NCBI GenBank assembly: GCA_020444275.1
Contig: JAHLLG010000006.1
Span: forward strand, 12,316 to 76,315
Direction of reading: 5' to 3'
Length of the DNA: 64,000 nt
DNA from: Bacteroidota bacterium
GTDB taxonomy: Bacteria > Bacteroidota > Bacteroidia > Bacteroidales > UBA12077
Shown one piece after another: positions 1,138 through 9,191 of this stretch. Under the pieces are notes generated by a model that made no database searches, had not been told where the DNA came from, and saw only the letters and a program-made list of their open reading frames with translations. The position numbers were made by a program, and so were the translations under genes. The stretch's first letter is position 1; the number at the start of each line of letters is the position of its first letter.

Positions 1138-1254
1138 TAAATACCATTTTAAAAAATAGTTATTGTGTAACGTTCCAAAACTCATACACCATAATCAATA
1201 TAACTATCTGACGGTTCAGCAATTCTACTTTCTTGCCTGCCAATTAATTATCGC

Positions 1255-1627
1255 CTGTGGACTGTCAACTATCGACTATGGACAATTAAACTATTCCTTC
1301 CCGCAACGTTCCAATGTCCTGCGGACGATTGGAAGTTTTCCGGTCCATCATCTGTGAACCGTGGACCATCGACTATGGACAATTAAACTCTTCCTTTCCT
1401 CAACATTCCAATATCCTGCGGATTATTGGAAGTTTTCCGGTCCATCATCTGTGGACTGTGGACCATCGACTATGGACAATTAAACTCTTCCTTTCCTCAA
1501 CATTCCAATATCCTGCGGATTATTGGAAGTTTTCCGGTCCATCATCTGTGGACTGTGGACCATCGACTATGGACAATTAAACTCTTCCTTTCCTCAACAT
1601 TCCAATATCTTCCGGATGATTGGACGT
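1255..1627. repeat. Tandem repeat, 97-bp unit, about 3.8 copies (each unit = 4-5 phased heptamers plus a ~65-bp core)
   Basis: Anchor atcgactatggacaattaaac recurs at 1271, 1368, 1465 and 1562 (period 97). Copies 1368-1464 and 1465-1561 are identical; copy 1 differs at about 10 positions. Confidence 0.95.
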
Positions 1628-1893
1628 TTGTATATAAAATTAAATACCTCAACAATTTAATCGTTGAACAATTCTACTTACTTCCTGCCCGCTCACCAGA
1701 TCAATAGGCATGATATCACAAGCAGAATATTATAAAAACAGGATATTTATCATCAAGGCACAGGAGTTCAGCTAATCAATAAAATAAAACCTTCTATCAA
1801 ATATTTTAAAAAATTAATGGAAAGTCATTGTCAGGATCTACTACTCGTATTATCTTCATAGCCATATACTCAAACATCTAAAACTTTTTCACC

Positions 1894-4017
1894 ATGAAAA
1901 GAAGTCTTTTTTCGATTATTTGCTTACTGTTCTTTCTGCAATTAACCGCAGGTAGCCAACAAACAAACATCGACAGTTTGCAAAAAATAATAAAATCCAC
2001 ACAAGATAGCACACACAAATTTAATGCTCTGCTTCAACTCTACAAATCGACAAAAAATGAGCATCCTCAACAGGCAGACGCTTATGCATCAGAAGCGCTA
2101 GCAATAGCCCGAAAAATGGGCGATAAACTAAAGGAATCACTGGTTATTAAAGAAACCAGTAAATTGTTGCTGGCCAACTATCAATTTGAACAGTTCGATT
2201 CTATTGTACATGCCATTATCCCGGTTTTTGAGGACCATAACGAAACCGAGCTGCTGGCTGACTGCTACAATAACCTGGGAACAAGTCAGTTTTACAGAGG
2301 GAACGTAGTAAAAGCAGAAGAATATTATCATCAGGCATTAGCTCTTTACGATCCCGATTCATGGCCCTGGGCATCTACCCGTCTAAATACGGTTTTTCTT
2401 ATGCAAACACAAGGCAGGTATTCAGAAGCGTTGCCCATATTATTGCAGCTGACCAAAAAATTTAAAGCACTGGAAGACGAATATAATTATACCCAGTGCC
2501 TGGTTACGTTAGCCTCTGTTTATGAAACCCAGGGTGATTTTGAAAAATCGAGGGAATATAACTTACAATACATTGAAAAATGTAAAGCTATAGGTTTTCA
2601 AGATGGCATAGCCGGGGGTTATCATAACCTGGCTAACCTGGCATCTAAACAGGAAAACCACCAGGAAGCACTAAAATATGCCCTTAAAGCCGTAGAAGGG
2701 TTCAAAAAACCGCAAATGGTATGGAACAAAGCATCATCCATGTTAACACTTGGTATTATCTACCATCAGTTAGGACAATTGGATAAAGCCTTGCAAACTA
2801 ACGAAGAAATTCTGACTATCTGCAAAGAAAAAGGAATAAACAGCTTTCTTTCGGAAATATACAATAATAACAGCAATATTTATCTGGAGAAGGGTGCTTA
2901 TCAAACGGCTTTCTCATGGGCAAAAAAATCCCTGCAGGAAGCAGAAAAAAACCGGGAAATAGACATGATCCGTGATGCCAGTTACAATCTATATGAGGCA
3001 AGTAAAGCATTAGGAAAAACAGATGACGCTCTGGCTTATCATGAATTGCATCATCAGTATAAAGACAGCCTGTTGCAAGAACAAAATAGCAAAGCCATCA
3101 GAGATTTGAAAAATAACTTTGAAATAACCATTAAAGAATATGAAAACCAGCAGTTAAAACAGGAAAATACGCTTAATGATTTGGAAATAAAGCAACAAAG
3201 AACAAAACTATGGGTAGTTGCCGTTATTCTTATCCTGGTAAGTGTTATCGTATTTGTTCTTATCTTGTTGAACAGGAAATTGCGTTCGAAAAACCGGGTA
3301 ATATCTGAACACCGTATTGAACTGGAAAAAAACAACCGGTTAAAGGATAATATGTTTTCTATTATTGCTCACGATCTGAGAGGACCTATGGGTGCAACAA
3401 AAGGCTTACTCGAATTTCTTGATATCGATAGTGCCAGAGAAGATCAAAAAGGCTATGAAGACGTTTTAGAAACAGTTAAAAAATCGGCCTCTTCTACTTA
3501 TGAATTACTTGAAAACTTGCTTAACTGGTCGCGACAGCAAAAGAACGAAATAACCTTTGAACCAAAATCAGCAAACCTTACCGAATTGGTAGATGAGATC
3601 ATGCAATTGAAACAGCCTGCAGCCAAAAGAAAAAACATTCATCTAAGTCATTCCCTGCAAAATGAATTTATTGTCAAATTCGATAAAAATATGATTCACC
3701 TGGTAATTCGCAACCTTATCGACAATGCAATCAAATTTACTCCCGAAGGAGGAAAGGTAGATATACTTGGAGAGATAAAAGAAGAAAAAGTTCAAATTGC
3801 TGTAGCTGATACCGGAGTTGGCATCAGTGAAGAAGCTAAAGTTAAAATATTCGATAAATACCAACTTTATAGCTCCAAAGGTACAAAAAATGAACATGGA
3901 TCAGGATTGGGACTTAAACTATGCCATGATTTTATTCAAAAACACTCCGGTTCTATTTATGTAGAAAGCAAAATTGGCGAAGGTAGCAGATTCATATTTA
4001 CAGTGCCACAAAATTAA
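1894..4017 (+). CDS. TPR-repeat sensor histidine kinase
   Basis: Signal peptide, ~400-aa TPR-like region, coiled coil and one TM (WVVAVILILVSVIVFVLILL). H-box FSIIAHDLRGP; ATPase boxes NLIDNAIKFT, DTGVGI, GSGLGL. Confidence 0.85.
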   Translation: MKRSLFSIICLLFFLQLTAGSQQTNIDSLQKIIKSTQDSTHKFNALLQLYKSTKNEHPQQADAYASEALAIARKMGDKLKESLVIKETSKLLLANYQFEQFDSIVHAIIPVFEDHNETELLADCYNNLGTSQFYRGNVVKAEEYYHQALALYDPDSWPWASTRLNTVFLMQTQGRYSEALPILLQLTKKFKALEDEYNYTQCLVTLASVYETQGDFEKSREYNLQYIEKCKAIGFQDGIAGGYHNLANLASKQENHQEALKYALKAVEGFKKPQMVWNKASSMLTLGIIYHQLGQLDKALQTNEEILTICKEKGINSFLSEIYNNNSNIYLEKGAYQTAFSWAKKSLQEAEKNREIDMIRDASYNLYEASKALGKTDDALAYHELHHQYKDSLLQEQNSKAIRDLKNNFEITIKEYENQQLKQENTLNDLEIKQQRTKLWVVAVILILVSVIVFVLILLNRKLRSKNRVISEHRIELEKNNRLKDNMFSIIAHDLRGPMGATKGLLEFLDIDSAREDQKGYEDVLETVKKSASSTYELLENLLNWSRQQKNEITFEPKSANLTELVDEIMQLKQPAAKRKNIHLSHSLQNEFIVKFDKNMIHLVIRNLIDNAIKFTPEGGKVDILGEIKEEKVQIAVADTGVGISEEAKVKIFDKYQLYSSKGTKNEHGSGLGLKLCHDFIQKHSGSIYVESKIGEGSRFIFTVPQN

Positions 4018-4067
4018 TCATCAGAAAACGATTATACTACGTTTTTACGAAATAAGCAGGAATAAAA

Positions 4068-4110
4068 AAGAATGAGCAGGTATTAAAAGCTGTTCATTCT
4101 TTTCCTTTTT
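4068..4110 (+). terminator. Rho-independent terminator candidate after the TPR kinase
   Basis: 12-bp stem aagaatgagcag (4068-4079) / ctgttcattctt (4090-4101) with one mismatch, followed by a T-rich tract. Confidence 0.6.
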
Positions 4111-4134
4111 CTATATGGCACAAAGATTCCAATC

Positions 4135-4533
4135 CCGACTATCCACTATGTAGTTAAAACTATTCCTTCTTGCAACGTTTCAAGCTTGCCTGCCGATTAG
4201 GCAGGGTCATGCGGACGCCTGCCTGTTCGACAGACAGGACTGGAATTTACTTCCTCCCTCCTAGTGCAGCTTAGTGTACAACAAGTCCCTGCCTGCCGGC
4301 TGGAAGGTAAGTGGTTACTGAACGCTGTAAACGATGATCTGTTGACTGTGAACCATGGACTATCGACTATTAAACTATTCCTTCCCGCAGCGTTCCTATG
4401 TCCTGCGGACGATTGGAAGTTTTCCGGTCCATCATCTATGAACCGTGGACTGTGGACCATGGACTATGGACCGCGGACCATGGACTGTGGACTATCGACT
4501 GTTGACTATGGACTGTAGACTATCAACTATGAT
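4135..4533. repeat. Two diverged copies of the 97-bp unit (first one interrupted by GC-rich hairpins) followed by 14 phased heptamers
   Basis: 4362-4440 matches the 1271-1367 unit (aaactattccttcccgca.cgttcc.atgtcctgcggacgattggaagttttccggtccatcatct). Heptamers CYRTNNA run in phase from 4436 to 4533. Confidence 0.85.
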
Positions 4534-4603
4534 CAAATGCAAAAATTTTTTGCCATTTATCCTGAAAAACCTACCTTTACTTAACCAATAACGATATTTG
4601 TAA

Positions 4604-4611
4604 TAAATTTG
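4604..4611 (+). promoter_or_regulatory. Bacteroidota-type -7 promoter box (TAnnTTTG)
   Basis: TAAATTTG lies 44 nt upstream of the ATG at 4656. Confidence 0.35.
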
Positions 4612-4655
4612 GAGGTACTATTTTACTAATTAACTATTTTACCAATACCCAATAA

Positions 4656-6194
4656 ATGACAAAGCGCTCTCTATTCTTTCACCTGCTATTTGATGTAATC
4701 ATCCTGCTCATTGCTTACAGTATGATCCTTTGGATAAAACCAGGTGATGCCGAGCCCTACGTAAGGAAATATGCCATTGGATTAGCCGTATTTTTGGTTA
4801 TCTGGATTATCATTTCCATTGCCTCGCAAAAATATACAGCACCTAAAAGAACCAGTTTAATCAATTCTGTTGTTTACCAGGTCGTTGTAAACACCTTTAT
4901 TGCCGGAATTATTGCTATTCTGATGTACCTGTTCCGGGCAGCAGACTATTCTCGTTTTATTGTTTTTGGCACCATTACCCTGACTACATTGTTTGAAATG
5001 GTTTTTGCTTTTAGCGAGTATTACATCTATAAGGCTAAAAGAAGCACCGACTCGTCGGAAGTATTCGAAAAATACAAGAAAATTGTTGGCCTGGATGATG
5101 AGTATCCTAAATCGGAAGTATTCCCTTTAGAATATACCGTTGATCCGGTGCCTGAAAATATTCGCGATACCATTATTGAGGAGTCGAATGTGGAAGTATT
5201 TAACTTTCTGTCGGAAAATATCGACCTCAATATTCCGAACTATTCGTTGCTTTCTACCACCACGCGGTTCAATGTGGAAAAGCTGCCGGCTAAAATGTAT
5301 TTAAAAATCGTTAATCTGAAACGAATTAATGATATCCGCTTTATTAACAAGTTTTTTGAAACGGTAAACCGCAAACTGGTCGATGGTGGCTTTTACATCG
5401 GATGTGTTGAAACCAAAGATCAGCGAAAAAAACGATTACTCAAAAAATATCCCCCGGTACTGAATCGCATCTACTATCTGTTCGACTTTATCATTAAACG
5501 TGTTTTTCCGAAGTTTAATCTTACCAAACATCTATATTTTTTCCTGACCCGTGGCGAAAACCGGGTAATATCCAAGGCCGAAACTTTTGGCCGGTTGTAC
5601 TCTTGCGGCTTTAAAGTAATTAACGAACAAGAAATTAGAGGTAATCTGTACTTTGTGGCTCGTAAAAATCGTGATCCGTTTTACGACATGGAGCCCACGT
5701 ATGGACCGCTGGTAAAGCTTAACCGGATAGGAAAGAACGGGAAAAATATCCAGGTATTTAAATTACGAACCATGCACCCTTATGCTGAGTACTTGCAGGA
5801 GTATGTATACGAAAAATCGAACCTGCAGGAAGGTGGTAAGTTTGCCGACGATTTTCGAATTACCACTGCCGGTAAACTATTCCGTAAATTCTGGATTGAT
5901 GAATTACCTATGCTCATCAACTTTTTACGTGGCGACCTGAAAATTGTGGGTGTTCGGCCGCTAAGTAAACATTATTATAGTTTATATAGTAAAGAGTTAC
6001 AGGAAAAGCGTATTCAAACCAAACCAGGCCTCATCCCTCCGTTTTATGTTGATATGCCTAAAACATTAGACGAAATTCAAGCCTCAGAACACAAATATCT
6101 CGATGCCTATTTTAAACATCCTTTTAGAACCGACTGGAAGTATTTTTGGAAAGCCGTGTGGAATATTGTTTTTAGAAAAGCGAGAAGTAGTTAA
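4656..6194 (+). CDS. Polyprenyl-phosphate sugar-phosphate transferase (bacterial sugar transferase family, WbaP-like) with N-terminal TM block and extra central domain
   Basis: C-terminal catalytic motifs are VFKLRTMH, WIDELPMLINFLRGDLKIVGVRPL and KPGLIPP. There are 4 hydrophobic helices in residues 1-125. Confidence 0.8.
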   Translation: MTKRSLFFHLLFDVIILLIAYSMILWIKPGDAEPYVRKYAIGLAVFLVIWIIISIASQKYTAPKRTSLINSVVYQVVVNTFIAGIIAILMYLFRAADYSRFIVFGTITLTTLFEMVFAFSEYYIYKAKRSTDSSEVFEKYKKIVGLDDEYPKSEVFPLEYTVDPVPENIRDTIIEESNVEVFNFLSENIDLNIPNYSLLSTTTRFNVEKLPAKMYLKIVNLKRINDIRFINKFFETVNRKLVDGGFYIGCVETKDQRKKRLLKKYPPVLNRIYYLFDFIIKRVFPKFNLTKHLYFFLTRGENRVISKAETFGRLYSCGFKVINEQEIRGNLYFVARKNRDPFYDMEPTYGPLVKLNRIGKNGKNIQVFKLRTMHPYAEYLQEYVYEKSNLQEGGKFADDFRITTAGKLFRKFWIDELPMLINFLRGDLKIVGVRPLSKHYYSLYSKELQEKRIQTKPGLIPPFYVDMPKTLDEIQASEHKYLDAYFKHPFRTDWKYFWKAVWNIVFRKARSS

Positions 6195-6201
6195 AATATT
6201 T

Positions 6202-6230
6202 GTCAACAGTTAACGGTCGATAGTCCACGG
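6202..6230 (-). repeat. Four phased heptamers in inverted orientation
   Basis: The reverse complement reads ccgtgga ctatcga ccgttaa ctgttga. It starts 8 nt after the stop of the sugar transferase. Confidence 0.8.
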
Positions 6231-6255
6231 TATATTAATTATAAAATACAATCAT

Positions 6256-6618
6256 ATGGCATTTAAATTTGAAAAATTGAACGTTTGGAAAAAAGCTCTT
6301 GATTTTGATAATGAAATTAATAATCTTGTAAAAGATTTTCCTAAAGAAGAACTATATATTTTAACATCACAAATGAAAAGAGCTGCTGATTCAATAGTCT
6401 TAAATATAGCCGAAGGTTCTACAGGACAATCAAATGCTGAATTTCACAAATTTTTAGGTTATGCTTTAAGATCAGCAATTGAAGTTGTTTCATGTTTATA
6501 TATTGCCAAAAACCGAAACTATATTAATCATATAACGTTTTCTAAACAGTATTCAACAGCAGAAGAAATTATTAAAATGATACAAGCATTGCGTAATTCT
6601 CTTAATGGAAAGAGATAA
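6256..6618 (+). CDS. Four-helix-bundle protein (23S rRNA intervening-sequence protein / Avd family)
   Basis: 120 aa. N-terminus FEKLNVWKKALDF...; also RAADSIVLNIAEG and LRSAIEVVSCLYIA, the typical pattern of this family. Confidence 0.8.
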   Translation: MAFKFEKLNVWKKALDFDNEINNLVKDFPKEELYILTSQMKRAADSIVLNIAEGSTGQSNAEFHKFLGYALRSAIEVVSCLYIAKNRNYINHITFSKQYSTAEEIIKMIQALRNSLNGKR

Positions 6619-6702
6619 CTATCAACTATCGACTATGGACTATCAACTATGGACTATGGACTGTGGACTATGGACTATAAACTATAAACTATGAACCATA
6701 AA
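6619..6702 (+). repeat. Twelve phased heptamers (CTATNNA) filling the whole 4HB-to-wzi spacer
   Basis: ctatcaa ctatcga ctatgga ctatcaa ctatgga ctatgga ctgtgga ctatgga ctataaa ctataaa ctatgaa ccataaa. The ATG at 6691 lies inside heptamer 11. Confidence 0.95.
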
Positions 6703-8316
6703 ATATTAATCATTAGTATATTACTTTCAATTTGCAGTTCTGTAAGCTCACAAGAAGTCTACTACCATACTTCAAATCAGGACATTTACGAATTCCTCGA
6801 TGAGTTTGCCAATATAGGTGTAATTGAACTTAACGCTACGGTTAAGCCCTATTCGAGGGTTTTCATTGCCGATAAGCTTCAAGAAATTCAGGAAAGCGAT
6901 TATTCTCTTAACAAAAGACAGCAAGCAGAGCTCGATTTCTATTTAAAAGATTTTAATAAAGAACTGCAACCAACCTATAACCGGAAGAATAAAAATTTCG
7001 ATAAACGATTTGATATTCTCTATTACAAAGATTCGTTGTTTACCTTCTCGGTAAATGCTATTCTGGGTGCTGAATATTTCATGAACGACAGCGGAAATTT
7101 TTACCACCGTTGGAATGGTGCCGAAGCATTTGCTTATATAGGTGATCATTGGGGATTTTATGCCAGCCTACGCGATAATCACGAGAGTGAGATTTTAACC
7201 CGCGAAGATTACCTTACCCCGCGTATGGGTGCTAATTATAAAAACAATGAAGGAGGAGGCGATTTTAGTGAAATGCGTGGTGGTTTAACCTACGCCTGGG
7301 ATTGGGGTAGTTTTGGAATTGTAAAAGATCATTTTGAGTGGGGAAACAACTACAACGGTGCGAATATCTTTTCAGGCAGAACACCTTCGTTTGCGCACAT
7401 CAAATTAAATTTAAAACCGGTCGATTGGTTTGAGTTTAACTGGGTTCATGGCTGGTTGGTTTCCGAAGTAATCGATAGTGCCTCCACCATGGTATTTACG
7501 AATGCATATGGTACCGATCGCAGAGAACAAATGTTCGATAAATACCTGGCCGCAAACCTGTTTACCTTTAAACCTTTTAAAAACTTTTATATCTCAGCAG
7601 GTAATTCGGTGATTTACAGTGCCGACGGACCACAGCTAGAATATCTGATTCCGGTAATGTTTTACAAATCGGTGGATCATACCTATAATGCTACTGACAA
7701 ATCGGGACGTAACGTGGGACAAAATTCACAGATGTTTTTCGATGTAAGCTCAAGAAACATTAAAAAAGTGCACCTTTCGGCCACCCTGTTTGTTGATGAA
7801 TTGAGCACCAGTCGATTTACCAACGATACTGTTTGGAACTTTTATAGCCTTAAAACCAGCATGCGGATTTCAGATCTTATACCCAATACGTTTATTACAG
7901 CCGAATATACCAAATCGATGCCACTAACCTATAAACACAATATACCTACTACAACTTTTGAGAGTAACGGGTATAACCTCGGACACTATTTAATGGATAA
8001 CTCGCAGGAAATTTATGTTTCGGCACTGGTAAAACCATTTCGAACGCTTTCGTTAAAATTGTCGTATCTGCATACACAAAAAGGAAAGGATTATGATGAA
8101 CTGGGCGGATCGCGACTGGGTAATCCGTATATGGATTCGGTTGAATGGGAAAATAAAACCATCGCTTTTCGTGCCAGTTATCAGGTAATTAACGACGGTT
8201 ACATCTTTCTGAATTATGTGCACAGCGATATTTCCGGTGATTTGGATAAGTACACAGCCCCTGTGTTCCACGGGAAACAAAGTACCATTTCGTTGGGGGC
8301 TAACTTTGGATTTTAG
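6691..8316 (+). CDS. Capsule assembly Wzi-like outer-membrane beta-barrel protein
   Basis: Signal peptide; N-terminal YEFLDEFANIGVIELNATVKPYSRVFIADKL resembles the Wzi helical lead. Aromatic-rich beta-strand pattern with a C-terminal F. Sits in a polysaccharide locus. Confidence 0.6.
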   Translation: MNHKILIISILLSICSSVSSQEVYYHTSNQDIYEFLDEFANIGVIELNATVKPYSRVFIADKLQEIQESDYSLNKRQQAELDFYLKDFNKELQPTYNRKNKNFDKRFDILYYKDSLFTFSVNAILGAEYFMNDSGNFYHRWNGAEAFAYIGDHWGFYASLRDNHESEILTREDYLTPRMGANYKNNEGGGDFSEMRGGLTYAWDWGSFGIVKDHFEWGNNYNGANIFSGRTPSFAHIKLNLKPVDWFEFNWVHGWLVSEVIDSASTMVFTNAYGTDRREQMFDKYLAANLFTFKPFKNFYISAGNSVIYSADGPQLEYLIPVMFYKSVDHTYNATDKSGRNVGQNSQMFFDVSSRNIKKVHLSATLFVDELSTSRFTNDTVWNFYSLKTSMRISDLIPNTFITAEYTKSMPLTYKHNIPTTTFESNGYNLGHYLMDNSQEIYVSALVKPFRTLSLKLSYLHTQKGKDYDELGGSRLGNPYMDSVEWENKTIAFRASYQVINDGYIFLNYVHSDISGDLDKYTAPVFHGKQSTISLGANFGF

Positions 8317-8331
8317 AACCAAACCAGCATT

Positions 8332-8355
8332 CAGTCAACGGTCAATAGTCCACAG
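8332..8355 (-). repeat. Three phased heptamers in inverted orientation
   Basis: The reverse complement reads ctgtgga ctattga ccgttga ctg. It starts 16 nt after the wzi-like stop. Confidence 0.75.
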
Positions 8356-8384
8356 TTTTTTTACTATTAATCACATACTCTACA

Positions 8385-8608
8385 CTATCGACTATCAACC
8401 GTGGACTATGGACTATCAACTATGGACTGTAGTCTATCGACTATAGACCATCAACCGTGGACCATGGACTATCGACTGTGGACTATAATCTATCAACTAT
8501 AGACTATTAACCGTGGACCATGGACTATCAACTGTGGACTATAATCTATCAACTATAGACTATTAACCGTGGACCATGGACTATCAACTGTGGACTATAA
8601 TCTATCAA
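8385..8608 (+). repeat. 32 in-phase heptamers with a 56-bp (8-heptamer) higher-order repeat
   Basis: 224 bp = 32 x 7 with no phase slip. The 56-bp unit ccgtggaccatggactatc.actgtggactataatctatcaactatagactattaa starts at 8455, 8511 and 8567 (the last copy is 42 bp). Confidence 0.95.
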
Positions 8609-9191
8609 CCCTCTCTTTCTCAAAAATCTCCTTAAGAAGTTTCTCCATCGTTTTTTCTTTTTCCTCTTCATTCAGTGAAGTAACCCGGGTAACATACATG
8701 TGATCGATCACCTGCATGCCACAAAACTCGAATACTCCCTTATCCTGTGTAGTTTTTAGTCCTTCATACACATTGGATAACCGTAATGATTTTTCATCCA
8801 TTCCTGCCGAGGTAATTAGGCGTACGCGTTTTTCGGTAAGCATTCCCTCCGGTCCCTTACCATTCATCCTAAATGCAAAACCATTGGTAAATACCCGGTC
8901 GATATACCCTTTCAAAATCGCCGGAAAAGCATCCCACCACAGTGGGTACAGTATCGTAATCTCATCAGCCCACTGGATATAATTTTGTTCTACTACCACA
9001 TCGGCCATAAACTGCCCTTCTTTATTAAATTTTAACTCCTGTGCTGATAATACCGGATTAAACTTTAAATCATACAAATCTCTGACTTTGACCTCATGGC
9101 CCTGTTCATAAAATCGGTCTACCAGTTCGCTTTTTAATTGTTGTGTAAAACTGTCTTTTTTCGGATGTGCTATTATGAGTAACTGATTCAT
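8595..9191 (-). CDS. NAD(P)H dehydrogenase (quinone), flavodoxin-like fold family
   Basis: MNQLLIIAHPKKDSFTQQL..., WW.AFPAILKGYIDRVFTNGFAF. The ORF extends to 9224, but the ATG at 9191 gives the family-typical N-terminus. Confidence 0.75.
   Translation of the reverse strand: MNQLLIIAHPKKDSFTQQLKSELVDRFYEQGHEVKVRDLYDLKFNPVLSAQELKFNKEGQFMADVVVEQNYIQWADEITILYPLWWDAFPAILKGYIDRVFTNGFAFRMNGKGPEGMLTEKRVRLITSAGMDEKSLRLSNVYEGLKTTQDKGVFEFCGMQVIDHMYVTRVTSLNEEEKEKTMEKLLKEIFEKERVDRL

Follow-up and report, generated by a model that had tools for sequence, protein, structure and literature searches.

Tandem heptamer arrays of a Bacteroidota polysaccharide locus and a probable intervening-sequence-like 4HB gene cassette

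The window analyzed here is a stretch of 64,000 nucleotides from a Bacteroidota bacterium (Bacteroidales, UBA12077; GenBank assembly GCA_020444275.1, contig JAHLLG010000006.1, positions 12,316 to 76,315), and it carries near its start a polysaccharide locus in which five consecutive intergenic gaps hold arrays of one degenerate, tandemly repeated heptamer. The genes that delimit these gaps are wecB, a gene for a TPR histidine kinase, a sugar transferase gene (Bac_transf), a gene for a protein of the four-helix-bundle (4HB) family (PF05635/TIGR02436), a gene for a 541-residue Wzi-like protein and a gene for a flavodoxin-like protein (Flavodoxin_2). With the exception of Wzi-like, these labels derive from profile matches; the 541-residue protein has no direct match in Pfam, NCBIfam or PDB sequence searches, and its label comes from its homologues, 12 of 21 of which match Caps_assemb_Wzi (best E 5e-8). 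The gene labels of the first-pass annotation of this DNA therefore hold. The two arrays on either side of the 4HB gene face each other as inverted arms, and it is this arrangement, its occurrence in other genomes and its relation to the remaining arrays of the locus that are described below.

The consensus first given for the heptamer, CYRTNNA, fits the arrays and can be tightened to CYRTNRA. Three consecutive CYRTNRA units match 51 times in the window, with 0.00 matches expected from 100 dinucleotide-preserving shuffles, and every match is confined to positions 1255-8594. Runs of at least three perfect units, about 81 units in total, occur only in the five gaps from wecB|kinase through Wzi-like|flavodoxin-like, and Tandem Repeats Finder (TRF), applied to the whole 64 kb, returns no period-7 array outside them, which bears out the earlier statements that all five gaps carry arrays and that the rest of the window has none. 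Within the window the arrays are thus clustered and not dispersed: it has 27 gaps of at least 40 nt, and the probability that five consecutive ones would be occupied under random placement is ~3e-4. About 16 unit variants of the one degenerate consensus are mixed in these arrays. All large arrays are co-oriented with the operon, and two arrays (6203-6230 and 8335-8355) are reverse-oriented. The latter two had been missed in the initial inventory, the positions of which are otherwise correct, and gap 3 holds nothing but the first of them. The proposed non-coding origin of the arrays is supported by the present data.

The features around the 4HB gene are the following.

6203-6230, - strand: gap 3, four-unit reverse array, upstream arm of the 4HB cassette, reading GTCAACAGTTAACGGTCGATAGTCCACGG on the + strand (heptamer run)
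6256-6618, + strand: gene for the 4HB protein, 23S rRNA intervening-sequence family, 120 aa (profile matches)
6619-6702, + strand: gap 4, 12-unit forward array, downstream arm of the 4HB cassette (heptamer run)

The polarity is thus reverse array, gene, forward array. The gap 4 array begins directly after the 4HB stop codon and takes in the beginning of the Wzi-like gene, its ATG (6691) and its first codons. When the segment 6190-6715 is folded, a long-range stem encloses the 4HB open reading frame (ORF) in both the minimum free energy and the centroid structure. A -7 promoter motif of the Bacteroidota type is absent from gaps 3 and 4, the only one being located at 4604, and both arms are therefore expected on one transcript. 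The 4HB protein matches PF05635 with E 3.6e-35, TIGR02436 with E 1.5e-33 and PDB entry 2gsc (Xcc0516) with E 3e-11. A hidden Markov model search of all window ORFs yielded no second 4HB copy, and no rRNA or other Rfam family was found in the window at gathering thresholds.

The 4HB protein of the window has >5000 relatives at E ≤1e-5, and relatives with 66-72% identity occur in Omnitrophota, Ratteibacteria, Desantisbacteria and Bacteroidota. Among them are P0070, P0073, P0079, P0081, P0095 and P0105 (67-72% identity), annotated in metagenome-assembled genomes of Omnitrophota, Desantisbacteria and Ratteibacteria. Because such identities are far above the closeness of the host phyla, they suggest that the 4HB gene has moved horizontally between phyla. 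A metagenome scan gave 80 4HB loci (retrieved loci are denoted by L and a number); periodicity was tested in 68 non-redundant loci. In all, repeat arms in inverted arrangement were seen at about 60 unrelated 4HB loci. Direct reading of these loci shows that short-unit arrays flank the 4HB gene in nearly every one of them, with a unit that varies by lineage: 7-mers of the AGTCCAYAG/CTRTGGACT type, 8-mers of the GTCCGRAA/CTTYCGGA type, GGAGACG/CGTCTCC and CCGACYA/TRGTCGG. A best local period of 7 or 8 was obtained for 56 of the 63 upstream flanks and 60 of the 64 downstream ones (89-94%), compared with 47 of 203 control windows (23%). Arrays of strict CYRTNRA units are ~28 times denser within 250 bp of the 4HB gene than in 427 kb of farther flank (80 loci), and their polarity is that of the window, upstream arrays being reverse in five of six loci and downstream arrays forward in eight of nine. 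The same polarity is displayed by a Patescibacteria locus retrieved by the array scan described below and not by the 4HB search (L015), where TYNAYRG-type units precede and CYRTNRA-type units follow a 4HB gene whose product is 42% identical to that of the window.

The two flanks of a locus are related to each other as complements. On average they share 6.6 7-mers in inverted and 3.2 in direct orientation, the controls sharing 1.6; inverted exceeds direct sharing in 43 loci and the reverse is true in 13 (P = 2e-4), and sharing is higher within one locus than across loci. The flank-to-flank duplex energy reaches z < -3 in 28 of 72 4HB loci versus 1 of 88 shifted controls. Loci L152 and L157 have a common insertion site (mlaF-like|radA) and different arms, each of which is internally complementary. 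Arm complementarity is thus kept while the unit sequence drifts, the signature of a selected stem.

The 4HB gene is co-oriented with both of its neighbors in 36 of 44 loci, and it is placed between genes of the same pathway: Bac_transf and the Wzi-like gene in the window, L122, L202, L205, L209 and L211; aguB and aguA in L146 and, judged by their common downstream flank sequence, in L130-L132 and L136; and an S-methyl_trans ORF and the remaining methionine synthase domains in L123, L138 and L140. The last case amounts to a split metH (L123:3984-8045; L138, L140), in which a 4HB cassette with heptamer arms sits exactly between an ORF comprising only the homocysteine S-methyltransferase and an ORF with the pterin-binding, B12 and activation parts; in L123 a heptamer array encodes the first codons of the downstream metH fragment. 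A second, divergent 4HB gene is present within 10 kb of the first at L123:8111-8461, L145:1738-2073, L177:944-1285 and L183:3702-4043, and these genomes therefore hold many copies. 4HB-type genes have also been reported between cmr3 and cmr2 (PMC3936711) and in rRNA insertions of candidate phyla radiation bacteria.

In relatives of decreasing identity the order Bac_transf-4HB-Wzi-like is kept, usually followed by flavodoxin-like, TetR and efflux genes, and the identities of the encoded proteins to those of the window are as follows.

L202: 4HB 97%, transferase 94%, Wzi-like 92%
L211: 4HB 93%, transferase 85%, Wzi-like 91%
L205: 4HB 86%, transferase 77%, Wzi-like 80%
L209: 4HB 83%, transferase 76%, Wzi-like 83%
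L122: 4HB 74%, transferase 65%, Wzi-like 76%

The 4HB protein is conserved like its neighbors (74-97%, versus 65-94% for the transferase and 76-92% for the Wzi-like protein), and vertical inheritance under comparable purifying selection therefore applies at this locus. The upstream arm is near-invariant, almost base for base in L202, L205 and L211. The downstream arm stays in place and changes its units: 12 in the window, ~10 plus 3 in L202, 16 in L205, 14 in L209 and 3 in L122, in differing order, and in L211 an uninterrupted, perfect run of eight CTATCGA units. In the window, L205 and L209 the Wzi-like ATG lies inside the final heptamers. Arrays are identical between independent datasets of one strain, namely the four of L205-L208, the three of L202-L204, and the window and L001 (a 1354-bp Logan contig); differences arise only between relatives with proteins ≤97% identical. 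Turnover of the units is therefore fast on an evolutionary scale and not of the contingency-locus kind. Other short repeats, of the CTTAGTG type, stand at the corresponding positions in L210 and L211. They have a period of 9-10 and replace the CTATGGA-type heptamers around the Wzi-like gene in 90%-identical relatives (L210:1-54 and 1678-1758, L211:4577-4694), and a short trace of them is seen in gap 2 of the window (4262-4285). A further kind of repeat occurs in L205, where two direct GTTCAAA x 4-5 arrays (7160-7190 and 7462-7495) lie ~270 nt apart inside a called 270-aa ORF (6863-7675) that has no Pfam match.

The arrays of the other three gaps are arranged differently.

1255-1642, + strand: gap 1 (wecB|kinase), about four tandem 97-bp units, the last truncated (TRF, heptamer runs and alignment)
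1255-1282, 1352-1379, 1449-1476 and 1546-1573, + strand: heptamer runs of gap 1 (at least three perfect units)
1283-1351, + strand: 69-bp core, copy 1 (nhmmer)
1380-1448, 1477-1545 and 1574-1629 (truncated), + strand: further cores of gap 1 (nhmmer)
4156-4199: partial, diverged core of gap 2 (nhmmer, E 0.005)
4339-4373, + strand: gap 2 (kinase|sugar transferase), five-unit array 5' of the core (heptamer runs)
4369-4435, + strand: full core of gap 2 (nhmmer, E 3e-22)
4436-4526, + strand: gap 2, in-phase arrays of five and seven units, 4436-4470 and 4478-4526 (TRF, heptamer runs)
8335-8355, - strand: gap 5, three-unit reverse array (heptamer run)
8385-8610, + strand: gap 5, about 30 units arranged as 4 x 56 bp (TRF, period 56)
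8385-8426, 8434-8482, 8490-8538 and 8546-8594, + strand: forward runs of gap 5 (at least three perfect units)

Gap 5 contains a second inverted pair, the reverse array facing the forward array that begins at 8385 with no ORF in between. Folded on the - strand, this pair (8330-8440) reaches -35.9 kcal/mol (z = -5.7), and pairs of the same kind are found in L122, after the orthologous gene, and in L083, a Cyclobacteriaceae genome. An RNA stem partner, one of the roles first proposed for the arrays, accordingly fits three gaps out of five (3, 4 and 5), in which arrays of opposite orientation are turned toward one another. The forward part of gap 5 is a higher-order repeat of 4.0 x 56 bp (8384-8609, 93% matches by TRF) in which phase is kept over ~226 bp, in agreement with the long phased arrays noted before. 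The convergent flavodoxin-like gene has its TAG stop codon (8595-8597) and last codons within this array (8595-8610), and among the genome-scan loci arrays often adjoin or provide the stop codons of neighboring genes.

Gap 1 is likewise a higher-order repeat (3.9 x 97 bp at 1255-1629, 93% matches by TRF), each 97-bp unit consisting of four heptamers, e.g., CTGTGGA CTGTGGA CCATCGA CTATGGA, and a core. Such a core had been recognized in two gaps and estimated at ~65 bp; the gaps are 1 and 2, to which the core is restricted in the window, and its length is 69 bp. It includes the hairpin TTCCAAT-GTCC-TGC-GGAC-G-ATTGGAA, followed by GTTTT. In the consensus of 12 copies from the window and its relatives the hairpin has 13 pairs, four of them with compensatory changes, and a single copy folds at -11.1 kcal/mol. 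Relatives have three to five cores upstream of Bac_transf (L205, L207) and one after the Wzi-like gene (L202, L205, L209), all oriented as the operon; no core was detected elsewhere in the window or in the ~210 retrieved loci, and a three-frame translation of the 97-bp unit gave no match in a protein database. We infer that the core is a conserved terminator- or attenuator-like hairpin element; the hairpin misses the T-run and GC criteria of a generic terminator scan. The gap 2 arrays at 4436-4526 precede the -7 motif TAAATTTG at 4604, upstream of Bac_transf. The sigma-70 promoter model is unsuited to Bacteroidota, and the arrays themselves yield spurious TTGATA...GATAGT "promoters" with it.

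Arrays and cores are both missing from the kinase|transferase gap of L211. Together with the CTTAGTG-type substitutes in L210 and L211, this indicates that the arrays of gaps 1 and 2 are recent and lineage-specific. The histidine kinase between these gaps (1894-4017) has the Porphyromonas FimS model NF053520 as its nearest (E 2e-67, under the cut-off of the model) and no adjacent response regulator, and heptamer-plus-core modules stand on both of its sides in direct orientation; the gene is kept in L211 and is not at this position in L122, L205 and L209. A separate, GC-rich hairpin family (gcctgccgattaggcagg, cctgcctgttcgacagacagg, ccctgcctgccggctgg) is found at 4186-4330 of the window, at L122:3318-3362 and in gap 5 of L209 and L211, and reappears in relatives, either ahead of Bac_transf or behind the Wzi-like gene; the corresponding region of the window (4175-4320) folds at -53 kcal/mol (z = -2.0).

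The occurrence of the arrays in other genomes was examined by a scan for five consecutive CYRTNRA units in one genome per species, which returned at least 120 stretches; taxon counts from it describe an arbitrary sample and not a census. Hosts among the stretches listed are mostly Cyanobacteria (Microcoleus, Nostoc, Calothrix, Tychonema and others) and Bacteroidota (Prevotellaceae, Paludibacter, Chitinophagaceae, Saprospiraceae, Cytophagales and others), with scattered members of other phyla, and several genomes have more than one array stretch among the matches listed. Mixed "GGA-type" arrays like those of the window occur in Cytophagales, Chitinophaga, Ratteibacteria and Verrucomicrobiales. 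Among 100 arrays located away from stretch edges, 89 are intergenic, and their orientation relative to co-directional neighbor genes is even (32 versus 30). None of the 120 stretches listed, 875 kb in all, contains a homologue of the window wecB or sugar transferase, and the expectation that the arrays would track polysaccharide loci is not supported by this sample.

PF05635 was defined on ORFs within 23S rRNA intervening sequences (IVSs), and RNase III cleavage is known for the IVS of Leptospira. The IVS of Coxiella burnetii is excised by RNase III, which cuts at the first of two to three tandem GACAGAT repeats; these immediately precede the ORF, and strains differ in their number (PMC4990558). 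In reverse complement, GACAGAT departs from CYRTNRA at a single position, and the upstream polarity of the Coxiella repeats is therefore that of the window. The window cassette resembles these elements in the protein family (PF05635/TIGR02436), in an ORF that lies within inverted repeats making a long stem and is sense to the host transcript and, with respect to Coxiella, in copy-variable tandem heptamers directly upstream of the ORF. It has the 4HB protein and the enclosing inverted repeats of an IVS and lacks the insertion in 23S rRNA: instead of interrupting helix 25 or 45 of that molecule, the element is located between protein-coding genes of an operon, and no rRNA is present in the window. 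Furthermore, its arms consist wholly of heptamer arrays, of 4 and 12 units; the 4HB gene is under purifying selection like its neighbors, whereas the Coxiella ORF is decaying; and RNase III excision, shown for Coxiella (PMC4990558), is a prediction for the window cassette.

The heptamers themselves are reminiscent of the short tandemly repeated repetitive (STRR) sequences of Cyanobacteria, which were reportedly described by Mazel in 1990. STRR and the long simple sequence repeats, a described class of tandem repeats (Mrazek 2007, as summarized in PMC4679880), are, like the window arrays, head-to-tail 7-nt units that are mostly intergenic, multi-copy and variable in copy number, so that the arrays belong to this class. 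The window unit CTGTTGA is a rotation of the reverse complement of STRR3 (CAACAGT), and the array scan finds its matches mostly in Cyanobacteria and Bacteroidota. The window arrays differ from STRR in mixing ~16 variants, in forming inverted pairs round a gene and in having a Bacteroidota host, and the comparison gives no account of mechanism. The TAACTGA direct repeats that MacGregor (2015, PMC4679880) described from marine Beggiatoaceae, from Cyanobacteria and from a few Bacteroidetes are also intergenic heptamers with a patchy spread over Cyanobacteria and Bacteroidetes, often ending a few bases from a start codon. However, TAACTGA does not fit CYRTNRA in any rotation or on either strand, the closest form (CTGATAA) having one mismatch, no window unit equals TAACTGA in any rotation, and no association with 4HB genes or inverted pairing is reported in PMC4679880. 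REP, REPIN and BIME elements share with the arrays the short extragenic inverted pairs and hairpins between genes, and the gap 5 pair resembles a REPIN doublet, but the repeat unit here is a non-palindromic tandem 7-mer and not an imperfect palindrome of 20-40 nt. CRISPR-like, REP/RAYT-like and ops-like readings were dropped on anatomy. The initial statement that the repeat belongs to no named family was thus half right: tandem heptamers are a described class (STRR, long simple repeats, TAACTGA; PMC4679880), and the Coxiella IVS has heptamers next to its 4HB ORF (PMC4990558). A literature search of incomplete coverage gave no description of heptamer or octamer arrays that flank 4HB genes outside rRNA in inverted orientation. 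As a general architecture the cassette has apparently not been described before; it combines two known kinds of element, the rRNA IVS with an S23p ORF and STRR-like heptamers.

The arrays of the locus are probably the tandem heptamers of an operon-embedded, IVS-like 4HB cassette, together with a local spread of the units of this cassette. The complementary arms would close a stem of ~20 bp and loop out the 4HB ORF in the Bac_transf-4HB-Wzi-like operon. By analogy with the Coxiella and Leptospira IVSs, the arms would pair in the polycistronic transcript and RNase III would cut the stem; cleavage would free the 4HB segment and make the 5' end of a Wzi-like mRNA whose start codon falls in the final heptamers. 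Since both arms are built of tandem units, pairing would tolerate shifts of register, and the arrays could grow, shrink and be reshuffled by slippage or unequal exchange while the stem is retained. The units of gap 5 would have spread locally as an ORF-less inverted pair and a 4 x 56-bp amplification, and those of gaps 1 and 2 as heptamers fused to the terminator-like core hairpin and amplified as 4 x 97 bp. Array anatomy and polarity, the complementary arms, their recurrence at other 4HB loci, positions that persist while the units turn over rapidly and the covarying core hairpin are observed directly; we infer that the arms pair at the RNA level, that RNase III cuts them as in the IVS precedent and that the arrays of gaps 1, 2 and 5 originated by local spread.

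Several observations weigh against the cassette interpretation. The overall fold energy of 6190-6715 is unexceptional relative to shuffles (z = -1.1), and duplex z-scores are weak in ~40% of the 4HB loci. A G-U asymmetry between sense and antisense duplex energies is not seen (36 loci versus 36), and the stem could act in DNA instead of RNA; the arms may have a role at the DNA level or no role. Gaps 1 and 2 have forward arrays only, with no reverse partner nearby. L146 (840-3880 and 4995-5421) is a second locus with clustered arrays: CCATGAA heptamers occupy four of its gaps on the 5' side of the 4HB gene, in part as a composite tandem unit of 96-117 bp made of heptamers and a ~60-bp core, and these neighbor-gap arrays are unlike the CTTCCGGA 8-mer arms of the 4HB gene itself; spread from the arms is therefore not general. 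Only 1 of the 120 array stretches listed has a 4HB gene within the 8-kb block of the array. The notion that every array marks a 4HB cassette was therefore dropped. Arrays also exist where there is no cassette, and the direction of the link may be the reverse, with cassettes landing in arrays.

In a rival explanation the arrays would be functionless slippage repeats, neutral or selfish, like STRR or long simple repeats, which accumulate where selection permits, here in the long gaps of a horizontally shuffled locus; 4HB cassettes would insert preferentially into them, or would give rise to them through insertion or repair. This explanation, which we consider unlikely but serious, accommodates the wide distribution of the arrays, their intergenic position and even orientation, the rarity of 4HB genes near them, the fast turnover of unit number and order including the replacement of whole arrays by CTTAGTG-type families in close relatives, the recent higher-order amplification seen in the 56-bp and 97-bp units and the missing G-U strand asymmetry. 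It does not, however, predict that the two arms of a locus complement each other in dozens of lineages whose units differ, nor the conserved polarity with reverse arrays upstream and forward arrays downstream, nor an upstream arm that is near-invariant while the flanking proteins differ by 15-25%. In another explanation the heptamers would be iterated binding sites in DNA or RNA, chiefly for the pentameric 4HB protein, a relative of Avd, or for an S1-, Csp- or CsrA-like factor at translation starts. Tight spatial linkage of 4HB genes and arrays, the relatedness of PF05635 to the nucleic-acid-binding Avd of diversity-generating retroelements and the Wzi-like start codon inside the array (window, L205, L209) fit such sites, and MacGregor proposed a role of this kind for TAACTGA repeats just 5' of start codons (PMC4679880). 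This is nevertheless improbable: unit sequence and length (7 or 8) vary by lineage while the 4HB protein is still 60-75% identical, unrelated repeats substitute for the heptamers in close relatives, and arrays occur in both orientations relative to genes.

Two further explanations assign the arrays to the polysaccharide genes. Slipped-strand phase variation, also proposed in the first-pass annotation, would have the number of units switch these genes, e.g., the Wzi-like gene with its leader and ATG in the array. Units between the 4HB and Wzi-like genes do range from 3 to ~16 among relatives, L211 has the perfect CTATCGA x 8 run, and Coxiella strains differ by one heptamer; yet the earlier expectation of length differences between strains is borne out only between such relatives, the arrays being identical across independent datasets of the same strain. 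The heterogeneity of the units suppresses slippage, and most arrays lie outside ORFs and promoter spacers. The arrays thus do not have the characteristics of a phase-variable contingency locus, and we hold this explanation to be very improbable. A cis element dedicated to the polysaccharide locus, for instance an antitermination or processivity signal like ops/JUMPstart or the UpxY leaders, was the original interpretation and is hardly credible now. The restriction of the window arrays to the five gaps of the locus and the co-orientation of the large arrays with the operon are in its favor. Against it, arrays occur elsewhere in stretches that lack wecB and Bac_transf homologues, what the arrays follow is the 4HB gene and not polysaccharide genes, like arrays flanking 4HB genes in metH, aguBA and radA contexts, the orthologous kinase|transferase gap of L211 is free of arrays, and in L122 the only arrays are those that flank the 4HB gene and those behind the Wzi-like gene. 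The ops octamer GGCGGTAG is absent from both strands of the window, and the arrays are not of the ops/JUMPstart type. We see no evidence that the additional arrays serve polysaccharide synthesis in particular.

The 4HB cassette interpretation may be extended beyond this locus, although we regard the extension as possible but doubtful. Non-rRNA 4HB genes would then generally be looped-out cassettes with co-evolving 7- or 8-nt arms, placed in sense orientation in operons or a split metH and processed at the RNA level like rRNA IVSs, and the dispersed arrays of Bacteroidota, and perhaps STRR, would be ORF-less relatives, footprints or landing pads of such cassettes, possibly bound by 4HB pentamers.

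On the practical side, the arrays appear to break metagenome assemblies, and they mislead gene callers. Many 4HB contigs are ~1 kb long, and L210 starts 54 nt upstream of the gene and ends inside an array, which suggests that assemblies break at the heptamer arrays. Gene callers carry the Wzi-like ORF upstream through the open-reading array, giving 566-589 aa as compared with ~540 (L202:1279-3009; P0122, P0125, P0143, P0145). For the present locus, the repeats say little on polysaccharide regulation. To our knowledge, no function has been assigned to the 4HB/23S rRNA IVS protein family outside diversity-generating retroelements, and we know of no explanation for the tandem heptamers of Cyanobacteria and Bacteroidota since 1990. 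Inverted arrays of 7- or 8-nt units round an operon-embedded 4HB ORF link these two puzzles, that of the 4HB family and that of the heptamer repeats.

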